Positions 44,924 to 51,170 of a DNA stretch of 64,000 nucleotides are shown one piece after another. The first letter of the stretch is position 1, and every line of letters begins with the position of its first letter. The notes beneath the pieces are model-generated. The model made no database searches, was not told the DNA's origin, and worked only from the letters and a program-made list of their open reading frames with translations. Location: NCBI RefSeq assembly GCF_054482525.1, contig NZ_CM137006.1; one strand, written 5' to 3'. Both the position numbers and the translations under genes were made by a program.

Positions 44924-45727
44924 ATGAACGCATTATTAACCAATCCCTTTAAAGAACGTTTACGCAAGGGCGAAGTGCAAATTGGTCTGTGGTTAAGCTC
45001 AACGACTGCCTATATGGCAGAAATTGCCGCTACTTCCGGTTATGATTGGTTGCTGATTGACGGGGAGCATGCGCCAAACACCATTCAGGATCTTTATCAC
45101 CAGCTACAGGCGGTAGCGCCCTATGCCAGCCAACCCGTGATCCGTCCGGTGGAAGGCAGTAAGCCGCTGATTAAACAAGTCCTGGATATTGGCGCACAAA
45201 CTCTACTGATCCCGATGGTCGATACTGCCGATCAGGCACGTCAGGTGGTGTCTGCCACGCGCTATCCTCCCTACGGTGAGCGTGGTGTTGGGGCCAGTGT
45301 GGCACGGGCTGCGCGCTGGGGACGCATTGAGAATTACATGGCGCAAGTCAACGATTCGCTTTGTCTGTTGGTGCAGGTGGAAAGTAAAACGGCACTGGAT
45401 AACCTGGACGAAATCCTCGACGTCGAAGGGATTGATGGCGTGTTTATTGGACCTGCGGATCTTTCTGCGTCGTTGGGCTACCCGGATAACGCCGGGCACC
45501 CGGAAGTGCAGCGAATTATTGAAACCAGTATTCGGCGGATCCGTGCTGCGGGTAAAGCGGCTGGTTTTCTGGCTGTGGCTCCTGATATGGCGCAGCAATG
45601 CCTGGCGTGGGGAGCGAACTTTGTCGCTGTTGGCGTTGACACGATGCTCTACAGCGATGCCCTGGATCAACGACTGGCGATGTTTAAATCAGGCAAAAAT
45701 GGGCCACGCATAAAAGGTAGTTATTGA
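44924..45727 (+). CDS. rhmA: 2-keto-3-deoxy-L-rhamnonate aldolase RhmA (YfaU)
   Basis: ATG at 44924 gives [26 protein letters not shown] (267 aa), HpcH/HpaI aldolase family. Confidence 0.88.
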
Positions 45728-45767
45728 TATCAAAGGCCCATGGGGATCGGCTGTGGGCCTGTGTTAA

Positions 45768-45941
45768 TTAGTGGTTATTCGCTGCCAGATCGGCTTCGCT
45801 TAGCTGGGTGGCCGCGAGCACCAGGTCACGATCAATGCCCTGTTCCAGCATGCGCAAAGCAATTTTAATGGCTTGTTCATGCATGCCTTCCTGCCAGCCA
45901 ATTTGGTGTCCTTCCTGCCGTAGCCGTTCAGCAATAGTCAT
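45768..45941 (-). CDS. ypaA: YpaA, a small protein duplicating the C-terminal module of Rpn (YhgA-like) proteins
   Basis: 57-aa [60 protein letters not shown]; its DNA is a near-copy of the 3' end of the neighbouring rpnB-like gene; below the ORF-track size cut-off. Confidence 0.6.
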   Translation of the reverse strand: MTIAERLRQEGHQIGWQEGMHEQAIKIALRMLEQGIDRDLVLAATQLSEADLAANNH

Positions 45942-45953
45942 TAATCTCTCCTT

Positions 45954-46913
45954 TTAATAACAGTTCGGAATATCAGCATCAGTGAGTTGGGTTGTCGCCA
46001 GCACAATCTCACGTTCAAAGCCCTGTTCCAGCATGCGCAAGGCAATTTTAATGGCTTGTTCATGCATACCTTCTACTTTGCCTTTCTGCAAACCCTCCAA
46101 CTTCCCCTCCTGCCAACCTTCAATCTTACCCTCCTGCCAGCCAATTTGATGTCCTTCCTGCCGCAGCCGTTCAGCAATAGTCATTAATCTCTCCTTTTGT
46201 AGTGGTGAACGTTCGGCAATCTCCTCAATAAAACGGGTGAAACGGGAGGTATCGCCGCATTGCAGCAGATAATTAAACAGCGTTTGTAGCTGGCTGTCAT
46301 TAGTGAAGCCTCTAACCAAAAGCGTGGTGATCCTGTCGACCATACCGATTAAATCGCGGTCGCGAATATGCTTTTGAATCAGTTCCAGCAGAGCTATACG
46401 CCGATGTTGCATGATCTCATCGTCAGGTACGATGGTGATATCCACCAACGGAAAAGCTTCGGTGTACAACTGCCGGGCAAGTTGCGGATCGTCAAACTCA
46501 TCCAGCCAGTTGAGTGAGTACGGGTAAGGCGAGGTTTCGCCATGATAAAACAGCAACGGCACCACCAGCGGGACTCTGTCATAGCCTTTGTCCAGGTGAC
46601 GCTGCATGGCGGCAGTGGCATAGCGCATTAGCCGAAAAGCCATATTCTTTTCTGCAGAGCTTTGATGTTCAATCACGCAGTAGATATAACCGTCACCGTC
46701 GCTGGTTTCCACGGACCACAAAACATCCGAGTAGTAAGCGCGTAAACTTTTTTCAATAAAACTGGTGGGTTCCAGGCGTAAGGTTTGCAGGTTGCAAAGC
46801 TTGCGCAGCGGCTCTGGTAGATGTATTTCCAGAAAATCCCGTGCGGTTTCGGGTGTGAACATAAAGGTTTTAAACACCGCATCATGCGGGGAGGAGGTTG
46901 TTGATTCGGTCAT
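45954..46913 (-). CDS. rpnB: Rpn-family recombination-promoting nuclease (YhgA-like), RpnB/YfaD-like
   Basis: 319 aa; N-terminal PD-(D/E)XK-like region ([26 protein letters not shown]) and C-terminal GWQEGK repeats plus the conserved tail [24 protein letters not shown]; K-12 position of yfaD. Confidence 0.8.
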
Positions 46914-47105
46914 GGTTGTCCGTCACCTGATATTTATGATGACGCGACATTACGGTTATCCCAGGCCTTTGACATCTGCCAGTTTCAGCCTTTGTGAGAC
47001 GTTTTCAGAGGAATTTTCACTGCGTTGCAACGCATACATTGGGCATGGAATCGTGTACGCAAAAATGCCCGGTAACCACATGCTTACCGGGCATCAGAAG
47101 GGAGT

Positions 47106-51170
<4,065 letters not shown>

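Follow-up and report, generated by a model that had tools for sequence, protein, structure and literature searches.

The rpnE–ypaA locus of Escherichia coli: a nuclease-family gene with an internal start, its duplicated short module and strain-variable repeats

Why should a gene of the PD-(D/E)XK nuclease family be followed directly by a second copy of its own 3′ end, and is the small protein encoded by this copy a partner of the larger one? The question is raised by a locus in the 64 kb stretch of DNA that we analysed (hereafter the window). A reading of the sequence alone had described an rpnB-like gene with a duplicated 3′ end and an in-frame repeat array, and had suggested that the separately expressed C-terminal fragment, YpaA, might act as an antitoxin-like partner. 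The gene within a gene, the second copy and the variation in repeat number were all published between 2019 and 2023, so the locus itself is not new. What we add to the literature is incremental, namely a prevalence of 58%, repeat counts that are uncoupled between the two genes, an array that can reside in either module and purifying selection on ypaA. The locus bears on the role of the second copy when its repeat number does not match that of its neighbour, as is the case in 12 of the 13 haplotypes described below.

The window carries yfaU (plus strand, ending at 45727), a 57-residue ORF, a 319-residue ORF and glpC (minus strand), giving the synteny glpC, rpnE, ypaA, yfaU, and the surroundings are metabolic operons rather than a defence island. 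Positions 45700–46950 are 100% identical to the chromosome of E. coli PCN033. The long ORF matched Pfam family PF04754 (Transposase_31) with E = 6.1e-88 over residues 8–209 (profile positions 1–202 of 203) and scored 710.8 bits, against a cut-off of 583, with the NCBIfam equivalog NF007418, the model that underlies RefSeq rpnE assignments. RpnB corresponds to YfcI and RpnE to YfaD (Kingston et al., 2017; PMC5350276), so that the label ‘rpnB-like’ has to be replaced by rpnE (yfaD). We consider it highly probable that our explanation as a whole is correct and that the locus is the chromosomal rpnE (yfaD)–ypaA pair of E. coli, in the allele of strain PCN033. Between the convergent yfaU and ypaA lies a G+C-rich hairpin, which is probably a terminator shared by the two genes. 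The coordinates of all features are collected in Table 1.

Table 1. Features of the rpnE–ypaA locus, in window coordinates
Feature	Position	Strand	Basis
G+C-rich hairpin between convergent yfaU and ypaA	45734..45760		10-pair stem with 6 G-C pairs; scored on the plus strand only
ypaA (rpnE_Ss), 57 aa; standalone second RpnE_S module without extra repeats, with diverged tail	45768..45941	-	ORF; NF007418; 7TH0; synteny with K-12
Downstream copy of 102-nt duplicated block	45789..45890		Repeat search; partner 45972-46073; family D1; 84% identity
Downstream copy of 80-nt duplicated block	45876..45955		Repeat search; partner 46119-46198; family D2; 91% identity
ypaA Shine–Dalgarno sequence, directly 3′ of the rpnE stop codon TAA (45954-45956)	45946..45953	-	Sequence TGTTATTAAAAGGAGAGATTAATG
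RpnE_S, gene within a gene; in-frame ORF from Met244, 76 aa	45954..46184	-	K-12 start context; 7TH0 match of AlphaFold2 model
rpnE (yfaD) CDS, long product RpnE_L, 319 aa	45954..46913	-	ORF; Pfam; NCBIfam; RefSeq rpnE in PCN033, WP_000140566.1
Array of eight 4-aa (12-nt) units	46065..46160	-	Codon reading; Tandem Repeats Finder; 4-aa steps among strains
Internal Shine–Dalgarno sequence AAGGAGAG, 4 nt 5′ of the internal ATG	46189..46196	-	Sequence AAAAGGAGAGATTAATG; identical to the ypaA site
N-terminal YhgA-like PD-(D/E)XK nuclease domain, residues 8-209	46287..46892	-	Pfam

With regard to the nuclease domain, D11, D63, E82, Q84, R94 and D165, which Kingston et al. (2017; PMC5350276) had mutated in RpnA, are all kept in the window RpnE with the same numbering as in RpnA; they include the active-site residues that match RpnA D63, E82 and Q84, and the conserved PDDE motif is present as well. 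K-12 RpnE was inactive in assays of recombination, toxicity and SOS induction (Kingston et al., 2017; PMC5350276). RpnE is therefore at most a putative toxin, although co-expressed RpnE_S may have masked its activity in those assays. In a search with PADLOC (2023 library), no Rpn-named model matched RpnE or YpaA; a weak match of the ‘C3a178 putative invertase’ model to residues 208–300 (E = 8e-5) was discarded.

The 66-nt block at 46133–46198 recurs at 45890–45955 with exactly two mismatches, as the sequence-only reading had it, and the similarity extends further, the 57-residue YpaA aligning with the last 76 residues of the long ORF from an internal methionine, Met244. The two collinear blocks found by the repeat search were resolved by pairwise alignment into one head-to-tail duplication, the unit of which runs from AAAAGGAGAGATTAATG, present upstream of both Met244 and ypaA, to the stop codon. 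The duplicated unit comprises the last 243 nt of rpnE and measures 183 nt in ypaA; the whole difference of 60 nt falls in a single gap within the repeat array and equals five 4-aa repeats. A 31-nt motif that includes both ribosome-binding site and start codon is present at two places in the 64-kb window and in none of 100 shuffles. The duplicated module, the in-frame array and the 20 residues by which the protein exceeds its K-12 counterpart (319 versus 299 aa) are thus all confirmed.

The second copy is a separate ORF with its own ribosome-binding site, syntenic with ypaA of K-12; its ATG lies 12 nt past the rpnE stop codon, and both ribosome-binding site and ATG are identical to those of the internal start in rpnE. 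YpaA aligned with positions 244–308 of NF007418 (E = 8.7e-29), the RpnE model being its best family match. The protein is 80% identical to RpnE_S and shares with it the N-terminal 17 residues. With the extra repeats excluded, DNA identity between the two modules of the window is 96% over the first 35 codons, compared with 69% for the tails. Our local copy of Pfam returned only a sub-threshold match of ypaA to RepB_primase_C and did not return PF27070 (HTH_Rpn_C), unlike the precomputed tables, in which the latter is listed.

There is direct evidence from K-12 that all three products of such a locus are made. Retapamulin profiling (Ribo-RET) of K-12 showed a peak at an internal, in-frame start for each of its five rpn genes, and the product started within rpnE was noted to be nearly identical to YpaA (Meydan et al., 2019). 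RpnE_S, RpnE_L and YpaA of K-12 were each detected as SPA-tagged proteins (Zhong et al., 2023; PMC10400941). Translation from the K-12 rpnE internal start has been observed by Ribo-RET, Onc112 profiling and SPA tagging. The start context of RpnE_S in the window, with its ATG at 46182–46184, is the same as in K-12. The idea that ypaA might be untranslated, which the sequence-only reading had allowed for, is met by the detection of YpaA in K-12 (Zhong et al., 2023). Internal transcription start sites have been reported in all K-12 rpn genes; a strict sigma-70 scan of positions 45650–47110 found no promoter and thus gave no position for the internal one described in print.

To gain insight into the nature of the short module, we compared it with RpnA_S, the structure of which was solved by Zhong et al. 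(2023; PMC10400941). YpaA matched this chain (PDB 7TH0) over residues 1–55 in a phmmer search (E = 1.4e-4). With the 76-residue RpnE_S the match splits into residues 1–13 and 38–72, a break that locates the inserted extra repeats within the first helix. The top Foldseek match in the PDB for an AlphaFold2 model of RpnE_S was again 7TH0 (probability 0.99, target-normalised TM-score 0.73, E-value 0.16), and on this basis the short module is predicted to have the three-helix fold of RpnA_S. The monomer model has a mean pLDDT of 70.5 and is confident only at residues ~40–70; the repeat region is of low confidence (block-mean pLDDT ~51–61), and the model did not confirm that extra repeats simply lengthen helix 1. 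The strongest PDB sequence matches to YpaA, with E-values down to 3e-13, were to designer pentatricopeptide-repeat proteins. We rejected these as an artefact, since each adds up about ten matches of a single helical hairpin, none of which is significant by itself. The hairpin formed by helices 2 and 3 (YpaA residues 18–48) does resemble the consensus pentatricopeptide-repeat motif.

How such a module may act is indicated by work on the paralogues. The short proteins of RpnA, RpnB, RpnC and RpnP2 block the toxicity, the SOS induction and the DNA cleavage caused by their long proteins, and it is for these four only that binding and blocking of the long protein by the short one have been demonstrated (Zhong et al., 2023; PMC10400941). 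The rpnE gene encodes RpnE_L, a 319-residue protein of the PD-(D/E)XK nuclease family, and has an internal in-frame start with a strong Shine–Dalgarno sequence, at which K-12 makes RpnE_S (76 residues in the window strain), comprising the C-terminal helical domain. By homology, RpnE_S would use the long helix to bind RpnE_L at its C-terminal domain, identical to RpnE_S, and keep the nuclease inactive, thus acting as an intragenic antitoxin. The first helix of the module holds the run of 4-aa glycine-containing units, and the strain-variable number of these units would decide which short protein fits which long protein. On the same homology with RpnA, RpnB, RpnC and RpnP2, the system may serve in phage defence. 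The gene ypaA, renamed rpnE_Ss (Zhong et al., 2023; PMC10400941), duplicates the short module in tandem, ribosome-binding site and ATG included, and is translated in K-12; the allele survey presented below suggests that it is maintained as a functional small protein. The locus would then illustrate a published principle, in which a toxic nuclease carries its antitoxin as a gene within the gene and a short repeat tunes the fit.

The array that is proposed to set this fit begins at residue 9 of the short protein, with the insertion of extra units following residue 17. The 60 nt at 46074–46133 are extra with respect to both K-12 rpnE and ypaA. Tandem Repeats Finder reported positions 46086–46139 with a period of 24, 2.2 copies and 83% matches, and the DNA of the array is 67% identical to itself at a shift of 24 nt, a value reached by none of 10,000 shuffles, and 43% identical at 12 nt. 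The 24-bp unit described in the sequence-only reading therefore fits the window allele, but the step by which strains differ is 12 nt, or four residues. That number is not invariant across strains, as had been envisaged as an alternative; we found from zero to eight extra units in rpnE alleles and from zero to six in ypaA alleles. RpnE in this way shows the feature that marks the family, 4-aa repeats that start 8–20 residues past the initiating methionine and vary in number among strains, in accordance with the report that all RpnS and RpnSs proteins of E. coli differ among strains in repeat number (Zhong et al., 2023; PMC10400941). Among the standalone proteins, lengths of 57, 61, 65, 69, 73, 77, 81 and 89 aa occur. 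One protein of 76 aa (P0008) has an in-frame duplication of an 11-residue segment inside the module, and in the 89-residue form (P0002) the opening unit, HQIGWQEG, is itself repeated; these two duplications show that length change is not confined to the xEGx run.

We next consider the distribution of the two-gene arrangement. With a junction-specific query, the rpnE–ypaA junction was found in 3,133 of 5,426 complete E. coli genomes (58%); in the remaining matching genomes (42% of the set was without the junction), the alignment reached the internal start region only. Reading 16 loci from complete genomes together with further loci from public assemblies yielded 13 distinct two-gene haplotypes. 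When metagenomes were scanned for the DNA pattern of the junction, only three loci came up, a number too small to survey. The arrangement is old, since E. fergusonii and a cryptic Escherichia clade have it too. The RpnE_S of E. fergusonii (L063, L064) is 100% identical to the 76-residue RpnE_S of the window, the five-repeat array included, and this could be due to transfer between species or to an old shared allele. In both E. fergusonii and the cryptic clade, the rhamnonate genes beside ypaA are missing or reduced to an IclR-family fragment.

Expressed as the number of extra repeats in rpnE and in ypaA, the haplotypes are (5,0) in the window, (0,1) in K-12, and (5,1), (5,2), (3,1), (8,4), (6,2), (1,4), (0,5), (6,6), (6,4), (0,3) and (0,4). 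The two counts match in one haplotype and differ in the other 12; this sample of 13 is small and is not corrected for phylogeny. Random pairing of the first 12 haplotypes would be expected to give 1.08 matches, indicating neither matching nor avoidance. The notion that ypaA never shares the repeat number of its rpnE held for the first nine haplotypes and was broken by the (6,6) locus, L045. We infer that the repeat number of ypaA is independent of that of the adjacent rpnE. The haplotypes are nevertheless stable within lineages, the exact window YpaA having a 319-residue RpnE beside it in 10 of 10 places, just as a 299-residue RpnE accompanied the K-12 YpaA in 10 of 10. These stable pairings, and the fact that the array units are imperfect copies of each other, led us to reject fast, slippage-driven phase variation.

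The consequence for YpaA follows from a published rule. In RpnC, protection requires a short protein whose repeat number equals that of the long one, and is lost when the two differ by a single repeat (Zhong et al., 2023; PMC10400941). By this rule YpaA of the window, with no extra repeats against five in RpnE, would not be a cognate partner, and since the counts are uncoupled YpaA would usually misfit its neighbour. The suggestion that a C-terminal fragment acts as an antitoxin-like partner thus stands for the Rpn family, where it has been shown (Zhong et al., 2023; PMC10400941), but is weakened for this particular fragment, which is five repeats short of the window RpnE. On the basis of the independent repeat numbers, and of the exchange between ypaA and the 3′ end of rpnE described next, we consider it more likely that ypaA is a non-cognate paralogue and recombination partner than a dedicated antitoxin of the neighbouring RpnE_L.

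Several comparisons point to such exchange. The five-repeat array of the window rpnE, joined to an rpnE-type tail, is identical at 159 of 165 nt to the array of ypaA in locus L040, which is joined to a ypaA-type tail; L040 is the (0,5) haplotype, in which rpnE has no extra repeats, the reverse of the (5,0) window. The array has therefore changed module while each tail stayed in its own position. All five single-gene alleles that we read consist of rpnE ending with a ypaA-type tail. One of these fusions, L006, is identical to the ypaA of L040 at 234 of 234 nt. In another, L012, the eight-repeat array of L007 is joined to a ypaA-type tail; L007 and L012 have identical YfaU and GlpC proteins, and the L012 allele fits a recent deletion between conserved 15-residue segments. 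It has been stated that the downstream copy can be lost, either because it is deleted or because it becomes fused to the N-terminal domain of rpn (Zhong et al., 2023; PMC10400941). We infer that ypaA exchanges sequence with the 3′ end of rpnE by homologous recombination, giving rise to array swaps and rpnE–ypaA fusions.

It is possible, though doubtful, that this is the main purpose of ypaA, in other words that the gene is chiefly a recombination cassette and that exchange with the 3′ end of rpnE re-specifies the C-terminal domain of RpnE. The reciprocal array positions in the window and L040, the fusion alleles, also mentioned by Zhong et al., and the 42% of genomes without the junction, the five such loci read all carrying a ypaA-type tail, are what this reading would lead one to expect. 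Exchange must be rare, however, given the constant pairings of both the window and the K-12 YpaA; tandem paralogues recombine whether or not this is selected for; and purifying selection, together with translation, argues that the protein itself matters. A further extension, in which ypaA is an expressed donor cassette whose array and tail swaps re-specify the interaction domain of RpnE_L and RpnE_S, in the manner of cassette switching in antigenic variation, seems to us distinctly unlikely. In this scheme the mismatched YpaA could itself have a separate role, such as neutralising incoming non-self alleles of RpnE or serving as a decoy for a phage factor. The survey shows movement of the array and uncoupled counts, and does not show selection for swapping.

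The alternative that YpaA is after all a true second antitoxin for the adjacent RpnE_L, raising the dose or using a differently regulated message, we regard as unlikely, though somewhat less so than the switching scheme. In its favour are the ribosome-binding site and first 17 residues shared with RpnE_S, a start only 12 nt past the rpnE stop codon, at which translation is probably coupled, the production of YpaA in K-12, the purifying selection and the presence of the arrangement in E. fergusonii and the cryptic clade. These points have to be set against the single match in 13 haplotypes, which equals the expectation for random pairing, the counts of five and zero in the window, when one repeat suffices to abolish protection in RpnC, and the divergence of the tails.

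Could ypaA instead be a functionless leftover of the tandem duplication? In RefSeq, PCN033 and many other genomes have it marked as an incomplete pseudogene, and 42% of genomes are without it. The mark is an artefact of the difference in length from the 61-residue K-12 protein; neither the ORF nor its ribosome-binding site and ATG are damaged. Moreover, the ypaA ORF is intact in all 13 haplotypes, encoding 57 + 4k residues, and pairwise pN/pS was 0.15 for ypaA, close to 0.13 for RpnE_S, with 0.06 for the N-terminal domain. The low ratio and the intact ORFs indicate that ypaA is under purifying selection and is no decaying remnant and, with the protein detected in K-12, we give this reading little chance. 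In several lineages (L042–L044, L052–L054 and L056–L058) it is the long rpnE ORF that is truncated (171–242 aa), the short module being intact and called as a separate gene; in L056–L058 the truncated ORF ends exactly at the ATG of the short protein. These lineages look like cases of toxin decay with the antitoxin module kept, or of a split into two genes.

That rpnE is a transposase and the repeat the end of a mobile element is suggested by the RefSeq product name and by the Pfam family name Transposase_31, but is hardly credible. The repeat search found no inverted repeats in 45700–46950; of 5,426 genomes, 5,420 gave a match to the locus, none of the places being on a plasmid, and the glpC-side context was constant in every locus read. 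What is duplicated is a coding module that has a translation start of its own, and for rpn genes no terminal repeats, target duplications or evidence of transposition were found (Zhong et al., 2023; PMC10400941).

Two points of annotation arise here, namely that rpnE is called a transposase and that an intact ypaA is called a pseudogene when its repeat number differs from that of K-12. RefSeq marks the intact ypaA as a pseudogene (‘incomplete; missing N-terminus’) in the window, at 45768–45953, and in L002–L005, L007, L008, L013 and L016, and the feature is stretched up to the rpnE stop codon. We attribute the flag to a repeat number different from that of the 61-residue K-12 protein. The records that flag ypaA also name rpnE ‘ISNCY family transposase’.

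Of the known systems, the closest is rpnE–ypaA of K-12, which has the same neighbours, glpC and yfaU, the same internal ribosome-binding site and ATG and the same tandem copy, and of which the window is an allelic variant. The N-terminal 243 residues of RpnE differ at two positions, and the window RpnE has five more 4-aa repeats (319 versus 299 aa), whereas its YpaA has one repeat fewer (57 versus 61 aa) and the substitutions F36I and Q40L. A more distant likeness was seen in weak NCBIfam FliH matches to RpnE residues 205–287 (window 46053–46301; E = 1.2e-7 to 3.7e-4), which cover the repeat run, with its glycine at every fourth residue. FliH/YscL proteins have N-terminal GxxxG runs; in FliH, the glycines are likewise spaced four residues apart, in a helix that takes part in self-association. 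The FliH-model scores for RpnE are far below the family cut-offs, and the likeness is one of repeat chemistry only, with no evidence of homology.

RpnA_L/RpnA_S resembles RpnE in having a PF04754 nuclease domain followed by a separately translated short helical C-terminal module, and the RpnA_S and RpnE_S/YpaA modules have their first 11 residues in common. RpnA_S (a 49-residue chain in 7TH0) differs from the RpnE locus in being without extra repeats and without a downstream copy, and toxicity and neutralisation have been shown experimentally for RpnA, whereas the role of RpnE is assigned by homology. The second copy itself has a counterpart in the rpnC/rpnC_Ss pair of some E. coli strains, in which, as in rpnE–ypaA, a standalone short module lies directly downstream of its parent; unlike ypaA, rpnC_Ss arose by an independent duplication of a different paralogue (PMC10400941).
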